A stretch of DNA of 64,000 nucleotides from Desulfobacterales bacterium (GCA_963674755.2 CAXXVS010000003.1:2720001-2784000), one strand, 5' to 3'. Positions 30,127 through 53,449 are shown, counted from the stretch's first letter. Numbers and translations are program-made. Notes: generated by a model from the sequence alone, not told the origin.

Positions 30127-30756
30127 TCAGACTTTTTCCATCATGGCTTCGATTCGCTTTTGGGCGCGGTCGGTGTTGAAGATGCCGCATTGGCAGGGCC
30201 GGAACAGGCGCTCGCTGGCTTCCGCCAGGGACATGGCGCCCCGTTTCACCTGATCCAAGGTATCGAGTATCAGATCGACGGATACCATCCCATGGCCGCA
30301 CATGGACTGGATTTCCATCACTTCCGTGGCGGGAAGTTTGTGGGTGGCCCCCCAACGTCCTAAAGAGGTATTCACCGTATGGACTTTTTGGCCGGCGGCA
30401 TGGCAGCATTCCTTTACGCGATCAAACAGACCGCTGACCACGATGGACATGCCGAAGTCGCCGGCCTTGATGGCTTTCAGCGCATTCACCAACTTGTCTT
30501 GGTCGTTGAAGACCGCCGTCACCACGGCGCGGTCCTCAATGTTCCGGATCATGGTCTCCAGTCCGCCCTGATGGTATTCATTGCCCAGGCGGGCGTCGCC
30601 TGCTTTTACAGCACCCTCTTTCAGGCAGATGCGGATGATCTCCTGCAGTTTGGGACCGCTGCCTTCATGGTTGATATCTTTACTGGGCATGGCCAGTACA
30701 ACGAAATCTTCGCGCAGGTTTTCGTCGCTGCCCACCCGATGCAGAGTATGAGTCAT
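30127..30756 (-). CDS. Uncharacterised Cys/His-motif protein, partner of the 4Fe-4S protein (copy 1)
   Basis: MTHTLHR start, MCGHG, CQCGIFN motifs; paralog at 47815-48447. Confidence 0.85.
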   Translation of the reverse strand: MTHTLHRVGSDENLREDFVVLAMPSKDINHEGSGPKLQEIIRICLKEGAVKAGDARLGNEYHQGGLETMIRNIEDRAVVTAVFNDQDKLVNALKAIKAGDFGMSIVVSGLFDRVKECCHAAGQKVHTVNTSLGRWGATHKLPATEVMEIQSMCGHGMVSVDLILDTLDQVKRGAMSLAEASERLFRPCQCGIFNTDRAQKRIEAMMEKV

Positions 30757-30760
30757 TGTT

Positions 30761-31483
30761 TTAAGCCTCCTTGGCCAGGGGACGTCCCAGGCCGATATTG
30801 GTCTTGCCGTTGGGCGCATACCACACACCGGCTTTGTCCAGATATTGATACGACGCTATATTTTCGTTTTCATCGGCCTTGCAGGCCACGCAAACCGTAA
30901 AGACGCTGTCTACCTTTCCGGCGACATCCTTCAGGGCATCAAGCACATCGGGCAGGGCTTCCTGGGGAACGCAGAACTCCAGGATCGCCGAGAGCACCTT
31001 CTCGTTCAGCAGTTCGTCCTTGAACTTGCCGGTGGCCGGATCGGACATCAGCGACGTCGTGGGGTTACAGACCTCGAATTGAACGCCGAAGGCCGCCATG
31101 GCCTGGGCGATCTTTTCGACATCCACAAACCGCGTCCCGGTTACCGGTCGACCAACCTCGATACCGATTCCGACCTGACCTTCCCTGAAGCGTGCGGTTA
31201 CCTCGTTGGTCTTCATCTCCTCGGTGCCGCGACCGCTGATACCGGATTCGGTGGCAATGGTCAATGGATCGCTGAGAATGCTGCGCACGGTGCGGGGGTA
31301 CACCATTTCCTGCTGGTATAGGGCATCCACCGGGCAATCCGCGCAGCGTAAACAACATCCGCATTCGGCACATTCATCCAGGTCGATCACCGCCGTATCA
31401 TCCAGTGATATCGCCCCCACCGGACAATAGGGCACGCACTGGCCGCATCCGACGCATAACTCCTGATCAATCTGCATTGTCAT
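30761..31483 (-). CDS. 2x[4Fe-4S] ferredoxin-domain protein with uncharacterised C-terminal domain (copy 1)
   Basis: CVGCGQCVPYCP and CAECGCC...CP; GRGTEEMKTNEVT; paralog at 47057-47818. Confidence 0.88.
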   Translation of the reverse strand: MTMQIDQELCVGCGQCVPYCPVGAISLDDTAVIDLDECAECGCCLRCADCPVDALYQQEMVYPRTVRSILSDPLTIATESGISGRGTEEMKTNEVTARFREGQVGIGIEVGRPVTGTRFVDVEKIAQAMAAFGVQFEVCNPTTSLMSDPATGKFKDELLNEKVLSAILEFCVPQEALPDVLDALKDVAGKVDSVFTVCVACKADENENIASYQYLDKAGVWYAPNGKTNIGLGRPLAKEA

Positions 31484-47056: not shown

Positions 47057-47818
47057 ATGTTAATTGACGCAGAAAAGTGCATTGGCTGTGGCAATTGTGT
47101 TGCCTATTGTCCGGTTGAAGCGATCAGCCTCAGCAAGCGACCTGAGCCGCAAAGCGCAAAAGGGAAGGATCGCCTGGCGGTCATCGATCTTGAAGAATGC
47201 GCTGAATGCGGCGTCTGCCTGCGGTCCGCCAAATGTCCGACCGACGCCATCTACCAGCAACCGCTGGTCTATCCGCGAACCGTCCGCAGCCTGATGAGCG
47301 ACGTGTTGACCATTGCCGAGGAGTCTCAGATTTCCGGCCGGGGCACCGAAGAGATGAAGACCAATGAGGTGACCGGCCGGTTCAAGCCCGGAATCGTCGG
47401 TGTGGCCATCGAGGTCGGACGACCCATAACGGGCACACGCATGGTCGACGTGGAAAAGATCGCCATGGCGGTCTGCGCCCTGAATGTCGATTTTGAGTCG
47501 TGCAATCCGGTGACCAGCATGATGACCGATCCCCGGCGCGGAAAGTTCAGGGACGATCTGCTCAATGAGAAGGTGCTCTCCGCCATCCTTGAGTTTGCCG
47601 TGAAGCTGGAACAGCTGCCCGAATTGTTTTCAATCTTGAAAAAAGTGGAAAAGGAGATCGATTCGGTCTTCAGTCTCGATCTTGCCTGCCGGCTGGATGC
47701 GGACGGCTCCAATCCCACGCGGCCTTATATCGCAGACGCCGGACTCTGGGTCGCGCCGAATGGGAAAACCAATGTCGGTCTGGGACGGCCGCTACTCGTG
47801 GAGGATGAACAGAGATGA
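47057..47818 (+). CDS. 2x[4Fe-4S] ferredoxin-domain protein with uncharacterised C-terminal domain (copy 2)
   Basis: CIGCGNCVAYCP, CAECGVC...CP; GRGTEEMKTNEVT, EKVLSAILEF, NGKTNVGLGRP. Confidence 0.88.
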   Translation: MLIDAEKCIGCGNCVAYCPVEAISLSKRPEPQSAKGKDRLAVIDLEECAECGVCLRSAKCPTDAIYQQPLVYPRTVRSLMSDVLTIAEESQISGRGTEEMKTNEVTGRFKPGIVGVAIEVGRPITGTRMVDVEKIAMAVCALNVDFESCNPVTSMMTDPRRGKFRDDLLNEKVLSAILEFAVKLEQLPELFSILKKVEKEIDSVFSLDLACRLDADGSNPTRPYIADAGLWVAPNGKTNVGLGRPLLVEDEQR

Positions 47819-48447
47819 CCCATACACTGCATCGATTGGGCACGGATGAAAGTATACTGAAACAAGACTTTGTAATGCTGGCGATGCCGTCCAAGGATAT
47901 CAACCATGTCGGATCCGCGCCGAAACTGAGACGCTTTTTTGAAATTGCCTTGGAAGCGGGTGCGATAAAAATAGGCGATTGTCGTAGCGGCAATGAGTAC
48001 TATCAGGGCGGTGTCGATAAGATTCTGGAAAATGTCGAAGACCGTGCCGTCATCCACGCTGTTTTCAAGGACAAAGACGCGGTTATTGCCGCGTTGAAGC
48101 AGTTGAAAAAAGAAGATCTGGGAATGTCGATCGTGGTTTCCGGACTTTTCAGTGAGGTCGACACGATCTGCCAATGCGCCGACCTAAAGCCGCACACGAT
48201 TAACCAGTCGCTGGGGCGCTGGGGCAAAACGGATAAACTGCCCCAAACCGAGATCGTTGAAATTCAAACGATGTGCGGCCATGGAATGGTTTCGGTCAAT
48301 CTTATCAACAAGGCCGTGGATCGGATCAAGGCCGGTAAGACAACGCCTGAAAAAGCGGCCGAAACGCTTTTCAAACCCTGCATGTGCGGCATTTTCAATC
48401 CCCACCGGGCCGCATTGTTGCTCCGGTCGCTCGCTTCGGGGGAATGA
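47815..48447 (+). CDS. Uncharacterised Cys/His-motif partner protein (copy 2)
   Basis: MTHTLHR, MCGHG, CMCGIFN; ATGA overlap with the upstream gene. Confidence 0.85.
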   Translation: MTHTLHRLGTDESILKQDFVMLAMPSKDINHVGSAPKLRRFFEIALEAGAIKIGDCRSGNEYYQGGVDKILENVEDRAVIHAVFKDKDAVIAALKQLKKEDLGMSIVVSGLFSEVDTICQCADLKPHTINQSLGRWGKTDKLPQTEIVEIQTMCGHGMVSVNLINKAVDRIKAGKTTPEKAAETLFKPCMCGIFNPHRAALLLRSLASGE

Positions 48448-48709: not shown

Positions 48710-48848
48710 GTCGCAAAACTTGTCGACCCCCTTTGTCAGGATTTTCTGCCAAACCCTTCCCGGATGATAACCGCCTAAAAAAGCGGCCACCCCTTGAGGT
48801 GTACCGCTTTGTTGTTAAACTTGATGGAGGGTTGGAGCGAGCGGATTT
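48710..48848. repeat. Degenerate copy of the tRNA-Pro 3' end and downstream flank (att-like islet boundary)
   Basis: 48777-48801 is identical (25 bp) to 53323-53347; 48830-48848 matches tRNA 3' end 53374-53392 at 16/19; weaker similarity extends ~70 bp further. Confidence 0.75.
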
Positions 48849-48885
48849 CGCTTGCTGAACGGTCGTTTAACGATGGAGGTCTTTC

Positions 48886-50064
48886 ATGAATGCTGCCTCA
48901 TCAACGGTAATTGAAACCAAAATCAATGCCTTTCAGAAAATCCATGCCGAGTTTAAAGACATTTTAAAGCACGAGAAGTGTCGTACCTGTTCATGCCTGC
49001 ATGCCGACGTGCTGAATATTCTTCTCGAAAAGATCAGGACATTTCGAAAAAGCGAAGCGGATCGTCGTTTGGTCGTGATCGAAAATGATTTCGAGCGCTG
49101 GGCCAATGATGCCGACATGTTGAAGATGCATGGCTGACTGGGGTGCCGCCCCTGTCTGCCGGTTCCGGCATACAACACCTTCAACGCGCTATTTGATGGC
49201 CTCAATGGGGAAGCTTATGCGCCCGCTCCGCCCTTGCGGACCGAGCGAATCCGGCCGGATGAATTTGCGGCCGATAACTGGCCGGTGCAGCCCGGGGATT
49301 ATGTCGTGTTAAATCCCAAAAAATCGGCGGCCATAGCTGTATTGGGAGGCGTCGATTTCGATGGGCCGGCATCGGGCTTGGTTGGATCCGAGATCGCCAT
49401 CATGGGCGGCATCACCACGGAAAACCTGGGTGTGGAGCACCTTGTCAAAAACATCATCGCGAATCCCTTCATCCGCCATCTGGTGATATGGGGCGAGGAT
49501 GTGGACGGTCATCGGCCCGGCGATGCGCTGCTTTGCTTGTCACACAACGGCATTGATAAGCCCGGGAGAATCATCGGTGCCCATGGGGCCAGGCCGGTCT
49601 TGAAGAACATCACGGACCAAGAGGTTGCCCATTTCAGGCGGCAGATTACGATTGTTGATTTGATCGGCAGGAAAGAAGTGGACGACCTGACCGGACAGTT
49701 TGCCGCGTTGCGGCGCCGGCCGGTCCAACCTTACGAGGCCGGCCTCAAAGTCGACTCGGTCGAGATCCGGAGGGCCGCGCCCGCCCGGCGCCTGAAACTC
49801 GATCCGAACGGCTATTTTGTCGTCATGGTGATGAAGAACAGGGAACATCCTTTGCTGGTGGAACATTACGGCAACGACGGCATTCTCCGAAACCTGATCG
49901 AAGGCAAGGATGCCGCGAGTATCTGTGCCACATTGATTGAGAAGAACCTTCTCTCCCAACTGGACCATGCGGCTTACCTGGGCCGGGAGCTGGCCAAAGC
50001 CGAGCTGTCCATCCACATGCAATCCCGCTATACGCAGGACCGGGCGCAGGGCGAATTGCTTTAA
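48886..50064 (+). CDS. Putative selenoprotein (392 aa, Sec84): Cys/Sec-rich N-terminal domain + MtrA-like corrinoid-binding domain + DUF4346-like C-terminus
   Basis: ORFs 48886-49137 and 49234-50064 are in frame with only the UGA at 49135-49137 between them, giving HG-U-LGCRPCLP; MtrA motifs TENLG...NP.IR.L...GH..G...GRIIGA.GA.P; DPNGYF and QLDHAAYLGRELAKAE...YTQD. Confidence 0.8.
49153..49174 (+). promoter_or_regulatory. Putative bacterial SECIS element
   Basis: TGTCTGCCG-GTTC-CGGCATACA hairpin; apical loop begins with GU, 24 nt after the UGA; extendable by GGTG 49142-49145 / CACC 49176-49179. Confidence 0.7.
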
Positions 50065-50213
50065 GTTGCCCGACCACAACGCAGGACAAGTAAGCAAGGC
50101 GTCAATAATCTTGTCGGCATAGTTTTGACAACCCCCTGAATAATTGCTTAAATGCCCAAGATGTTCGGCCATCCGACGATCCACATCGCCCACCTCATAT
50201 CAGGGTGCCCGCT

Positions 50214-50372: not shown

Positions 50373-51260
50373 ATGCCTGAAATCACCCGCCAGAGAGTTG
50401 GAGAGCTTGTCAGAGGCGTTTTCCAGATTCTGATGGAAAATCCTGAGGGTCTGAAGGCGAAAGAGGTTATTCAAAAGCTCGAAGCCCTTGTCCCACCAAC
50501 CCCATTCGAAGACTCGGTCTATCCGAACAACCCGTCAGTCAGACGCCGTGATAAGATCGTCCGCTTTTCGACAATTAATCCGGTGAAGGCAGGATGGATG
50601 ACGAAAGATAGGGGGCTTTGGTCCATCACCGAGGACGGCATAAAGGCCTTTGATGAATTCACTGTCCCTGAGACATTCGCAAGGGAAGCGGGGCGCCTGT
50701 ACAAGAAATGGAAGGATCAACAGCCCGATGAGGAAGAGGTCCCAGATCCCGACGAAGGTGAAACCGGCGCCGCACTGACGCTTGAGGAAGCCGAGGAAGC
50801 CGCCTGGAGCGAGATTGAAGCGCATCTGAGCGAAATGAACCCATATGAGTTTCAGGATTTGGTGGCCGGTCTACTAAGGGCAATGGGGTACCATGTTGCT
50901 TGGGTTTCACCACCAGGACCGGACAAAGGGCTGGACATTCTCGCCCATACGGACCCGCTTGGGATTGCCGGAGCAAGGATAAAGGTTCAGGTAAAACGCC
51001 ATGCTGACCGTGCTCCTGTCCAAGATATACGCTCATTCATGGCCATCTTGGGTGACGGTGATGTGGGTATTTTCGTTTGCAGCGGCGGTTTCACCAAGGA
51101 CGCTGAGCAGGAAGCACGGGGGCAGGAAAGGCGCCGAATCATGCTTTTGGATGCCCGCCGACTATTTGACCTGTGGGTTGAGCATTACGAGAAGATCCCA
51201 GAGCGGCAGCGGCGCCTTATGCCTTTGAGACCGATCTATTTTCTTGCGCCTGATGAATGA
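50373..51260 (+). CDS. mrr: Mrr-family type IV restriction endonuclease
   Basis: N-terminal wHTH-like region (VKAGWM...GLWSITEDG); PYEFQDLV, GPDKGLDI, IKVQVKR, GGFTKDA. Confidence 0.88.
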   Translation: MPEITRQRVGELVRGVFQILMENPEGLKAKEVIQKLEALVPPTPFEDSVYPNNPSVRRRDKIVRFSTINPVKAGWMTKDRGLWSITEDGIKAFDEFTVPETFAREAGRLYKKWKDQQPDEEEVPDPDEGETGAALTLEEAEEAAWSEIEAHLSEMNPYEFQDLVAGLLRAMGYHVAWVSPPGPDKGLDILAHTDPLGIAGARIKVQVKRHADRAPVQDIRSFMAILGDGDVGIFVCSGGFTKDAEQEARGQERRRIMLLDARRLFDLWVEHYEKIPERQRRLMPLRPIYFLAPDE

Positions 51261-51324
51261 GACGGCTGTTTACATTCACTCTTAAATAGTCTCCTATTAA
51301 ACGAATGGGAAAAAGGAAGAAAGC

Positions 51325-52596
51325 ATGATCACACGGATCCAAGCATTAAATTATCGATGCTTAAAGTACGTAGACCAAGCTTTGGGTCCGTTTCATGTCC
51401 TTGTCGGCCCCAATGCTACGGGTAAGACTACATTTCTTGATGTGGTTGGGCTTCTTCATGATGTTGTAAATAATGGCCCAGCCCAGGCTCTCAACGAGCG
51501 AACAAGAGACTATAAAGATTTGCTATTTGGTGGCACTGGCAATTGTTTCGAATTAGCTGTTGAAGCTCAAATTCCAGAAGATCGTAGAAGGAAAATAGAG
51601 AAGCCTGAATTAGATACAGCTCGATATGAACTCTCTTTGGGATTTTCTGAGGGTTCGGAGGAGGCATCAATTCTCGCTGAGAAACTGCTGATCCTCAAGT
51701 CAAAGCCAAAAGAAAGAGTTTGTCAAACCGAACTTTTTCCATGTTCAGTTGATCCACCTAAAACCATCATATCTCCTAAAACCGTTATTGGGGCCAAGAC
51801 TATTCTGAATAAGATGCCGGGAGGAAATGATAATTTTCAACCAGAAACAGAAAGTGCAAAAGGCAAACGATGGGTCTATTCTTTTAAGCTCGGCCCAGGC
51901 AAATCATCGCTTGGTAATTTACCAGAAGATGAAGAGAAGTTCCCTGTCGCAACTTGGTTTAGAGACCTTCTTGGTGAAGGCGTGCAGCGCTTCATTCTTA
52001 ATAGTACCTTAATGAAGAAGGCCAGCCCTCCAAGCAAAACGAAGGGTTTTCTTACCGATGGTTCAAATTTGCCTTGGGTAATTGCCAGGTTAAAGTCGAG
52101 ATCACCCGAGCTTTATAAGGACTGGATAAGCCATTTACAAACTGCTTTACCTGATTTGGAAGGGATCAAAACGATAGAACGAGAAGATGATAGACACTGC
52201 TATTTGGTGTTTAAATATAAGGGTGGATTTCAAGTTCCATCTTGGGTCGCATCAGATGGTACTTTGCGACTATTGGCCCTCACCTTGCCAGCATATATGG
52301 GCAACTTCAGAGGTGTGTATCTTATTGAAGAGCCCGAAAATGGTATACATCCAAAGGCTGCAGAAACTGTATTTCAGTCCCTTTCATCTGTTTACGACGC
52401 CCAAATTTTGCTTGCTACACATTCACCGGTCATCCTTAGCCTTATTGACAAAGATGAGGTGAAGAAAGTGCTCTGTTTTGCAAAGACACCCCAAGGGGCA
52501 ACCGACATTGTTACAGGTGATAAACATCCAAAGCTTAGAGATTGGACCGGTGATCCAAATATCTCTCTGCTATTTGCCGGCGGAGTACTCGGATAA
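51325..52596 (+). CDS. AAA_15/AAA_21-type ABC ATPase, resembling MADS protein MAD3
   Basis: GPNATGKT, SDGTLR, LIEEPENGIHP, ATHSP; AT-rich codon usage. Confidence 0.8.
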   Translation: MITRIQALNYRCLKYVDQALGPFHVLVGPNATGKTTFLDVVGLLHDVVNNGPAQALNERTRDYKDLLFGGTGNCFELAVEAQIPEDRRRKIEKPELDTARYELSLGFSEGSEEASILAEKLLILKSKPKERVCQTELFPCSVDPPKTIISPKTVIGAKTILNKMPGGNDNFQPETESAKGKRWVYSFKLGPGKSSLGNLPEDEEKFPVATWFRDLLGEGVQRFILNSTLMKKASPPSKTKGFLTDGSNLPWVIARLKSRSPELYKDWISHLQTALPDLEGIKTIEREDDRHCYLVFKYKGGFQVPSWVASDGTLRLLALTLPAYMGNFRGVYLIEEPENGIHPKAAETVFQSLSSVYDAQILLATHSPVILSLIDKDEVKKVLCFAKTPQGATDIVTGDKHPKLRDWTGDPNISLLFAGGVLG

Positions 52597-53219
52597 TGGA
52601 TCTTGTGGCTCTCGTGCCTGATCAAGATTATGAGAAAGCTCTTGAGGGATTATTTCTGAGGCATCAGGCTCTTGGGATACGGCCTATTACCTTTACCTAC
52701 TATCGCCATCCCAATCGTGATGCGGGATGCAGAGCTAAGTGTACCTCCTTTCTTCGGCCTTTTATAGATCAATTTGATTATGCTCTCGTTATGTTCGACT
52801 TTGAAGGTTCAGGGGCTGAAAACCATGCTCGGGAACACATTGAAATTGGCATCGAAACTGACTTAGCCCGTAATGGTTGGGCTGAACGCTCTGCAGTCAT
52901 TGTTGTTGAGCCAGAAATAGAGGCTTGGGTATGGAGTGACTCCTGTTCTGTCGACGAAATCTTGAATTGGCGAGGGCACCAGCCAGAAATTCGGACAATG
53001 ATAAAGGATCGAACTGCTTACTGGACAGACGAGAACCCGAAGCCTCACAGACCGAAAGAGGCGCTGAGATGGGCATTGCGGCATGCTGAAAGACCAAAGC
53101 CTTTTTCGTCTGCAATATTCAAGGACTTGGCCACAAAGGTGAGTTTCAATCGTTGTATTGATCCTTCATTTGACAAGTTAAGGACCACTCTGACAGCTTG
53201 GTTTGGAAATGAGGTGTAA
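52596..53219 (+). CDS. TOPRIM/RloB-like partner protein, resembling MADS protein MAD4
   Basis: DLVALVPD, LGIRPI, HPNRDAGC, MFDFEGSG, PEIEAWVWSD, DPSFDKL; TAATG coupling to the ATPase. Confidence 0.7.
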   Translation: MDLVALVPDQDYEKALEGLFLRHQALGIRPITFTYYRHPNRDAGCRAKCTSFLRPFIDQFDYALVMFDFEGSGAENHAREHIEIGIETDLARNGWAERSAVIVVEPEIEAWVWSDSCSVDEILNWRGHQPEIRTMIKDRTAYWTDENPKPHRPKEALRWALRHAERPKPFSSAIFKDLATKVSFNRCIDPSFDKLRTTLTAWFGNEV

Positions 53220-53322: not shown

Positions 53323-53355
53323 AAAAAAGCGGCCACCCCTTGAGGTGAGCCGCTT
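53323..53355 (-). terminator. Intrinsic terminator downstream of tRNA-Pro
   Basis: AAGCGG...CACC-loop-GGTG...CCGCTT hairpin; the A-run is a U-tract on the minus strand. Confidence 0.7.
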
Positions 53356-53371
53356 ATTTGTTTAAACTGAA

Positions 53372-53449
<78 letters not shown>

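Follow-up and report, generated by a model that had tools for sequence, protein, structure and literature searches.

A selenocysteine very probably encoded by UGA in a predicted soluble MtrA-type corrinoid protein with a DUF4346 domain from a Desulfobacterales bacterium

The window analysed here is the whole stretch of 64,000 nucleotides from a Desulfobacterales bacterium (GCA_963674755.2, CAXXVS010000003.1:2720001-2784000). Under translation table 11 it shows two ORFs, 48886-49137 (83 aa) and 49234-50064 (276 aa), which an earlier reading made from the DNA alone (hereafter the sequence-only reading) had taken for one frame broken by UGA 49135-49137 only. Translation with TGA read as U bears this out: positions 48886..50064 of the plus strand form a single frame of 392 codons in which U84, at 49135-49137, is the sole recoded step. 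The read-through translation contains KCRTCSC (residues 31-37), HG-U-LGCRPCLP (82-92) and DGHRPG (207-212); its Cys/Sec motifs are C32-x2-C35-x-C37 and U84-x2-C87-x2-C90, and the UGA is the first member of the second motif, as had been noticed. The NCBIfam model NF002128 aligns to residues 11-390, thus spanning the TGA, with an E-value of 2e-87 and 294 bits. The sole sigma-70-like candidate site lies about 400 nt upstream of the gene and is at chance level. The features of the locus are as follows.

48777..48848, no strand assigned: left island boundary, a repeat consisting of a copy of the tRNA-Pro downstream hairpin and a decayed tRNA 3' piece
48875-48879, plus strand: GGAGG ribosome-binding site upstream of the read-through gene
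48886..50064, plus strand: read-through gene, 392 aa (NF002128 match across the TGA; structural model with pLDDT 93.4)
48886..49203, plus strand: N-terminal helical domain with six Cys/Sec positions (invariant in 44/44 alignment rows)
49135..49137, plus strand: in-frame TGA, inferred Sec84 (TGA in 22 loci, Cys codon in 69)
49153..49174, plus strand: SECIS-type hairpin (upper stem 49157-49161 with 49166-49170; GUUC loop 49162-49165)
49267..49716, plus strand: MtrA-type cobalamin-binding domain, residues 128-277 (PF04208, E 5e-36; PDB 5LAA, Z 23.2)
49510-49512, plus strand: predicted cobalt ligand His209, together with Glu179 (mapped from MtrA residues)
49798..50040, plus strand: DUF4346 (Pfam PterinBD-DUF4346), residues 305-385 (PF14251, E 8e-22)
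50373..53219, plus strand: island cargo unrelated to the gene, namely an Mrr-type nuclease (50373-51260), a MAD3 ATPase (51325-52596) and MAD4 (52596-53219)
53323..53449, minus strand: right island boundary, repeat 53323-53392 and intact tRNA-Pro(GGG) 53373-53449

The gene lies on a tRNA-linked islet, as the sequence-only reading had it. The left repeat, 48777-48848, lies 37 nt upstream of the start codon, contains a decayed 3' piece of tRNA-Pro and matches 53323-53392 at 81% identity; between the repeats the GC content drops to 42-46%. A congener (G404) carries repeat and gene together three times, at 84% nucleotide identity; one of these copies is some 5 kb from the same tRNA, with different cargo between. 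A contig of another study agrees with the window over 48712-50068 and diverges beyond that point. A shared operon with the Mrr, MAD3 and MAD4 genes was rejected given this variation in cargo. Searches located the gene in 3 of 13 genomes of its genus, in 2 of 401 of a class sample, in 7 of 301 genomes in the class of a second carrier (G220) and in 13 of 401 of a phylum sample, the last count including shorter relatives. From the patchy spread and the variable cargo we conclude that the gene is fixed at the far edge of a tRNA-Pro island whose defence genes are unrelated to it. Some side observations belong here. The three G404 copies (L124:8921-10096, L125:5492-6613 and L126:49-1122) comprise one that is intact, one that is frameshifted and one cut close to its 3' end by a transposase-like gene. 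MAD3 and MAD4 both score above cut-off and accompany the Mrr-type nuclease, the rest of that defence system being absent from the islet. Elsewhere in the window, 47057-48447 (plus) and 30127-31483 (minus) hold paralogous pairs of a 4Fe-4S dicluster protein and a 210-aa protein with CGHG and CxCG motifs; the copy that was scanned had no Pfam or NCBIfam match.

The meaning of codon 84 was examined by comparison with relatives. In an alignment of the query, its U written as C, with 43 full-length homologues picked for coverage of the N-terminus, the six Cys positions are invariant in 44/44 rows, all 43 homologues having Cys at column 84, and so are E179, H209, D306, E326, H361, Y364, E368 and Q384. 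At the nucleotide level, the codon-84 column of 93 loci from genomes and metagenomes reads TGA in 14 and TGC or TGT in 69, the motif being absent from the other 10. Six further genomes and two of the G404 copies bring the total to 22 TGA loci, a count that excludes G766, an apparent duplicate of L002, and the frameshifted third G404 copy; as the TGA and Cys loci are kin and several are near-copies, these counts are not independent. TGA loci come from two classes and at least two lineages. Within the main clade the TGA persists at protein identities as low as 44%, and it recurs at 32-37% identity in a separate lineage. No motif-bearing locus has TAA, TAG or a frame change at this column. Homologues therefore carry Cys or an in-frame UGA at residue 84, which is what the sequence-only reading had proposed to look for. 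Since the TGA is common to 22 loci, sequencing error or a private nonsense mutation was rejected; the contig of another study also spans the codon, with no difference among the matches listed. Among the best 120 database matches, 119 start after residue 84, and P0034 alone is full length, with Cys there.

Downstream of the UGA, hairpin 49153-49174 refolds as first described, with a GUUC loop that starts 24 nt after the UGA. The bacterial SECIS consensus, as given in the accessible part of PMC13188914, has a hairpin 16-37 nt downstream of the UGA with a G early in the loop. We implemented this consensus model as a script of our own rather than using bSECISearch. It was satisfied by 19 of 22 TGA loci (14/14 of the first set, then 5/8) versus 10 of 69 Cys loci, and by 357 of 2346 (15%) host TGA codons that end long ORFs, taken as a true-stop control; three of the six newly found TGA loci failed the folding test. 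One of the host's own two selD genes fails as well, so the script is an imperfect test, and because a genome-wide screen of the host for UGA, CxxC and hairpin returned 52 mostly spurious-looking matches, the model by itself is weak. Hairpin stability was discarded as stand-alone evidence, the hairpin being no more stable than shuffles (z from -0.8 to -1.8 in three short windows, +0.2 in the longest). A lone hairpin of such unremarkable stability is weak evidence, and the strong evidence is its conservation across loci.

This conservation is also visible in codon usage. L85, V93, P94 and A95, all within 12 codons after the UGA, use a single codon each in 10/10 clade members, while of the comparable invariant degenerate residues further on 0/50 have a single codon in all clade members. 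The stem is invariant across the main clade and yielded no compensatory pair when searched for covariation. In comparison with G404, residues 10-83 show a dN of 0.099 and a dS of 0.878 (0.114 and 0.373 for residues 98-390), and the low dN/dS of the first segment identifies the region before the UGA as selected coding sequence. In a quick tree of 87 rows, the Sec/Cys label needs three changes, at least two of which are forced by well-supported branches; there is a main TGA clade of 12, with the Cys-bearing P0034 inside, and a separate pair, L054 and L078. This pair likely represents an independent gain of Sec at the same residue, judging from the tree. As an observation on the pair itself, L054:32 and L078:1044 form a second Sec lineage among Cys forms and have a distinct hairpin of 7 bp with a CGGC loop.

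The host has the machinery that decoding would require. A check for selA, selB, selC and selD, suggested beforehand, found them all: one selA, two selB, two selD, each with a TGA, and two tRNA-Sec. The positions noted for this set, duplicated but for its single selA, are C1:776949, C1:790172-791365, C2:1226048, C2:1902839 and C3:2083622 of the host genome (G000). Among other TGA genomes tested, 10 of 11 have selA, which was not found in G919 (93% complete); as 5/5 Cys-form genomes tested also have it, selA does not discriminate Sec from Cys forms. A strict search for selB was passed in 3 of 5 genomes. The host's selB-tRNA-Sec locus has a counterpart in G404; in G412, a genome of the host's genus that is 70% complete, no selB was detected.

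With the bacterial selenoproteins that have an in-frame SECIS, as described in the available portion of PMC13188914, the query shares the UGA, the hairpin, Cys homologues, sel genes and a UxxC-type motif. By every computational criterion tested, covariation excepted, it is a selenoprotein, and UGA84 very probably encodes selenocysteine on these comparative grounds. None of the findings that the sequence-only reading had listed as fatal to selenocysteine was encountered; close relatives keep both the TGA and the hairpin. That the TGA is instead a real stop, arising by nonsense mutation or separating two genes, is very improbable: gene callers do annotate a downstream protein of 240-324 aa and TTG/ATG start codons are available after the TGA, but the same TGA recurs in 22 loci of two classes and at least two lineages, is never exchanged for TAA, TAG or a frame change where the motif is present, maps to an invariant Cys within a C-x2-C-x2-C motif, and precedes a hairpin in which synonymous codons are frozen.

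The read-through protein was modelled with AlphaFold2 on 109 sequences (pLDDT 93.4, pTM 0.85). The model has a helical N-terminal domain with helices at 3-26, 36-56, 60-78 and 92-106, a Rossmann-type middle domain and a small alpha/beta C-terminal domain. A fold search matched the N-terminal domain to generic helical bundles only, with Z at most 8.4. The middle domain, in which MtrA motifs including the His of DGHRPG had been recognised beforehand, coincides with Pfam MtrA at 128-277, contains the invariant His209, and superposes on MtrA (PDB 5LAA) with Z 23.2 and an rmsd of 1.9 A over 157 residues, the next match having Z 8.4. The residues of MtrA named as binding cobalamin in the accessible part of PMC4915002 include the His84/Glu54 linkage and nucleotide-tail residues. 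Of those so named, D17, Y18, T53, E54, N55, G57, N64 and H84 are identical in the query by alignment, while K52, V61, I111 and residue 82 differ; in addition, the MtrA consensus GAIPF/Y is replaced by GARPV.

The C-terminal domain, likewise proposed from the DNA to resemble DUF4346, is assigned to Pfam PterinBD-DUF4346 at 305-385 and had no sequence match in the PDB; the label 'pterin-binding' is no more than the name used by Pfam. MtrA and DUF4346 occur together in 44/44 representatives scanned, out of 150 listed and mostly chosen for absence of the Cys domain, and three are fused to thymidylate synthase. Further attachments to the pair are an ICMT-like domain, ArsR and an intein. This co-occurrence, together with the varied add-ons, indicates that MtrA plus DUF4346 is a portable core to which the six-Cys/Sec domain is one attachment. 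Examples are P0208, P0244, P0260, P0218 and P0204, which comprise thymidylate synthase fusions in two domain orders, the ICMT-like fusion and an intein immediately before the TENLG motif. Many Cys forms bear extra Cys-rich linkers. Other genomes of the phylum encode short MtrA-like proteins (L014-L018) with neither Cys domain nor DUF4346. In the host, a single match to the protein and a single DUF4346 were found.

Fold and ligand residues support the view that this is a soluble, stand-alone MtrA-type corrinoid protein, predicted from sequence and model to bind cobalamin, as had been proposed. The sequence-only reading had also seen no other mtr genes nearby, and indeed the neighbours are the Mrr and MAD genes; no match to MtrH was found in the host genome, which is 97% complete, and MtrH was matched in 2 of 14 other carriers. 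With MtrA and the cytoplasmic MtrA homologues of methanogens (PF04208; 5LAA, 5L8X; PMC4915002, accessible part) the query shares the fold, the His/Glu linkage and nucleotide-tail residues; unlike MtrA, it has no membrane anchor and its host no MtrH, and it adds the six-Cys/Sec domain and DUF4346. MtrA homologues in bacteria are noted in the same text, with no function assigned in the part available. Curated NCBIfam cut-offs were missed by the query, at 118 versus 249 for TIGR01111, 119 versus 161 for NF002126 and 294 versus 568 for NF002128. An identity as the MtrA subunit of the Mtr complex was rejected, given the DUF4346 C-terminus, the absence of an mtr operon around the gene and of an MtrH match in the host, and the scores below curated cut-offs. 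NF002128 (PRK00964.1-6; 390 positions), named 'tetrahydromethanopterin S-methyltransferase subunit A', does have the same full-length architecture as the query, and four Cys-form relatives score 300-542 bits against it. Its model output carries no Sec annotation, and its name refers to the Mtr complex, to which these proteins do not belong.

Neighbourhoods of the homologues were surveyed, as had been suggested, by clustering 1597 neighbour ORFs and then counting partners with HMMs built from the same Cys loci. An ArsR/CadC-type regulator and a Cys-Cys membrane protein proved to be recurrent in Cys forms. The recurrent layout starts with an ArsR/SmtB gene followed by the MtrA-DUF4346 gene and ends either with an exported OB-fold-like Cys protein and a membrane protein with GCCGSP, or with a thioredoxin-like protein and a DsbD/ArsG-like protein with NPCC. 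Within 2 kb and on the same strand, an ArsR-family gene is found at 44 of 69 Cys loci and the Cys-Cys membrane partner at 42 of 69; at least one partner is present in 33 of the 38 Cys loci with enough flank. The TGA loci differ in this respect (membrane partner 0/22, ArsR 1/22; either in 0/12 with enough flank), a comparison in which HMMs built from Cys loci could miss diverged partners. At the query locus itself both the metal-sensing regulator and the Cys-Cys membrane carrier are absent, and one query for the MerT-like partner found none in the host. The metal function of the Sec form is thus carried over from relatives of about 35% identity, because the Sec loci have no such operon.

CadC responds to Cd, Pb and Zn, and ArsR to As(III). 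Among 39 regulators encoded upstream, the CxC of ArsR/CadC occurs in 22, of which 14 also have an N-terminal Cys; most of those without CxC have a C-terminal Cys pair. One regulator finds its best PDB match in CadC (E 5e-21). Since there are at least three types of regulator, no single metal is indicated. The GCCGSP family gave no family in Pfam or PDB profile searches. In HHalign it matches nine MerT sequences with a probability of 95.3, Cys-Cys falling on Cys-Cys, in a pairwise profile comparison for which MerT was chosen after the Cys-Cys motif was seen; seven other membrane alignments reach at most 3.7 and 40 column shuffles at most 2.6, and with all Cys masked the probability is 49. The DsbD-like partner was rejected as MerT-like, with a probability of 1.1. 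Direct fusions exist to ArsR (P0177) and to the MerT-like protein (P0137, P0133, P0147). On the Planococcus plasmid pA30H1, the genes for ArsR, a small cation transporter and a heavy-metal P-type ATPase precede an MtrA-DUF4346 gene whose product keeps all six Cys and the His. L114 (the plasmid locus, 4345-8729) and L115 represent a Cys form of aerobic Planococcus that has a long linker rich in Cys and is encoded downstream of a metal ATPase. For the Sec forms there are weaker links to metals. L005 is preceded by a CadC-type regulator and an SO_0444 Cu/Zn transporter, the G220 copy by an ArsM-like methyltransferase, and L003 and L004 have an ArsR-ArsP-DGC cluster 3 kb away.

Cys relatives thus resemble mer operons (MerR/MerP/MerT/MerA/MerB) and cad and ars operons in sharing a repressor, an exported Cys protein, a MerT-like protein and a cytoplasmic enzyme. 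They differ from mer in that the regulator is of the ArsR/SmtB family (CadC, ArsR or a third type) and not MerR, the exported partner is OB-fold or thioredoxin-like and the enzyme is unrelated to MerA/MerB; the query locus has none of these partners. Among the neighbour clusters that were annotated, neither merA nor merB was recognised. The earlier guess of metal(loid) chemistry receives independent backing from the operons around Cys relatives, a context that the Sec forms lack.

A second known system, HgcA/HgcB (NF040863/NF040864), had been invoked for its likeness to the protein. HgcA has a fold of the CFeSP type. The likeness holds as a functional analogy, in that both would combine a corrinoid with Cys/Sec ligands and soft-metal chemistry in anaerobic Desulfobacterota, and fails for fold, membrane domain and hgcB, all of which differ: the query is of MtrA fold, soluble and without a membrane domain, and its Sec lies in a separate domain and not at the cobalt. 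The HgcA model NF040863 has no match to the query at E 0.1 and no ferredoxin gene (hgcB) follows, so that with a soluble three-domain model HgcA identity was rejected. All HgcA-model matches in the host are below cut-off; one of them, L117 (G000 C3:2492357-2493022), is a 594-codon frame with 149 bits, distinct from the other CFeSP-like match. HgcA and HgcB are both listed as selenoproteins in the part of PMC13188914 available.

We tentatively favour, at somewhat less than an even chance, the reading that the protein is a soluble cobalamin enzyme relaying methyl between cobalt and a soft metal(loid) bound by Cys/Sec. SelB would recode UGA84 through hairpin 49153-49174, and cobalamin would be bound base-off with His209 as lower ligand, as in MtrA. 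C32/C35/C37 and U84/C87/C90 may together bind the substrate, whether Hg, Cd, Pb, an As(III)-like or an organometal species, the selenolate being expected to hold such soft ions more tightly than a thiolate. DUF4346 would bind a folate or pterin as methyl source or sink, giving a self-contained pterin-cobalt-metal relay in which methyl could pass either way between metal and cobalt. In Cys-form operons a periplasmic Cys protein and a MerT-like carrier would stand before the protein, which would serve as the converting enzyme, as MerA/MerB do in mer operons, and the Sec form may be a detached, unregulated version for trace levels. This relay is favoured by the identity of the MtrA ligand residues and the Z 23.2 fold match, by ArsR (44/69) and the Cys-Cys membrane partner (42/69) at Cys loci with fusions to both, and, for a link to C1 metabolism, by the pairing of MtrA with DUF4346 in 44/44 representatives and three thymidylate synthase fusions. 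Against it stand the lack of an operon at Sec loci (membrane partner 0/22, ArsR 1/22), the missing MtrH loader in the 97% complete host and its presence in only 2/14 other carriers, regulators of at least three types and the GARPV that replaces GAIPF/Y.

The absent loader is one point in favour of a second reading, in which the selenoprotein would be a cob(I)alamin reductase or lyase, with Co(I) reducing an ion or cleaving a carbon bond, the Cys/Sec domain holding a metal or Fe-S cluster, and the whole acting as a MerA/MerB stand-in for anaerobes. Reductive B12 enzymes exist, the alternative partner pair of thioredoxin-like and DsbD-like proteins is of electron-relay type, and the thymidylate synthase fusions may just as well point to pterin reduction. 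Against this reading, the 45 neighbour clusters listed include no recurrent ferredoxin or flavoprotein, and MtrA, the one fold relative to have been characterised, is a methyl carrier according to the accessible part of PMC4915002; we regard this alternative as unlikely, if the strongest of its kind. Somewhat less likely still is a selenoprotein corrinoid methyltransferase acting on a thiol or other C1 acceptor, its six ligands holding Zn or Fe-S for activation or reduction, in metal-induced repair or bypass of metal damage. Zn-thiolate activation is standard in MtaA/MetE, the same two-domain core occurs in C1 enzymes and the Sec forms are detached from metal operons, but linkage and fusion to the MerT-like carrier and ArsR fit metal handling better than repair. 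Metal sequestration, in which the Cys/Sec domain would bind toxic ions and MtrA-DUF4346 serve as a non-catalytic scaffold or sensor, would agree with six soft ligands and the extra Cys-rich linkers of many Cys forms, and is improbable because His209, Glu179 and six polar DUF4346 residues, invariant in 44/44 rows, would be needless for a mere sink.

The methyl relay can be drawn out into a mer-like system, a speculative and rather improbable extension, in which an organometal would be imported by the MerT-like carrier and held by Cys/Sec, its methyl passing to cobalamin and on to folate. This would make a merB-independent demethylase of methylmercury or methyl-metals, for which Sec would have been recruited at least twice in anaerobes. 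Oxidative demethylation is a pathway described as not experimentally validated in the part of PMC10114901 available, and the demethylase reading, if true, would provide a gene-level candidate for it.

As for novelty, the sequence-only reading had not recognised a described selenoprotein family, and the protein is indeed missing from the 2026 table of 119 prokaryotic selenoprotein families, where neither MtrA nor DUF4346 appears in the accessible part of PMC13188914; the only corrinoid enzyme in that table is HgcA, other entries named for cobalamin being BtuF and a CobW-related protein. A term search of BSepDB (PMC13326102; accessible text and part or all of one supplement) gave 0 matches, and in the accessible part of the deep-Sep supplement (PMC12013277) the lone 'mtra' lies inside a sequence. 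A search of openly readable papers found no description of the protein family and 0 papers on DUF4346. Very probably, then, this is a selenoprotein family so far uncatalogued, plausibly attached to an undescribed B12 route of metal handling.

The family would add to the prokaryotic selenoproteome a member that gene callers halve, 119 of the best 120 matches being without the first 84 residues, and would be the second corrinoid enzyme beside HgcA in the 2026 table (accessible part of PMC13188914). Its Sec marks a likely working residue of a widespread uncharacterised protein, whose present name, that of a methanogen Mtr subunit, is a misnomer that can mislead metagenome studies. With Cys relatives in mer-like operons led by ArsR/CadC and on plasmids, it becomes possible to test whether toxic metals are methylated, demethylated or reduced by a B12-dependent route outside HgcAB, ArsM and MerAB.
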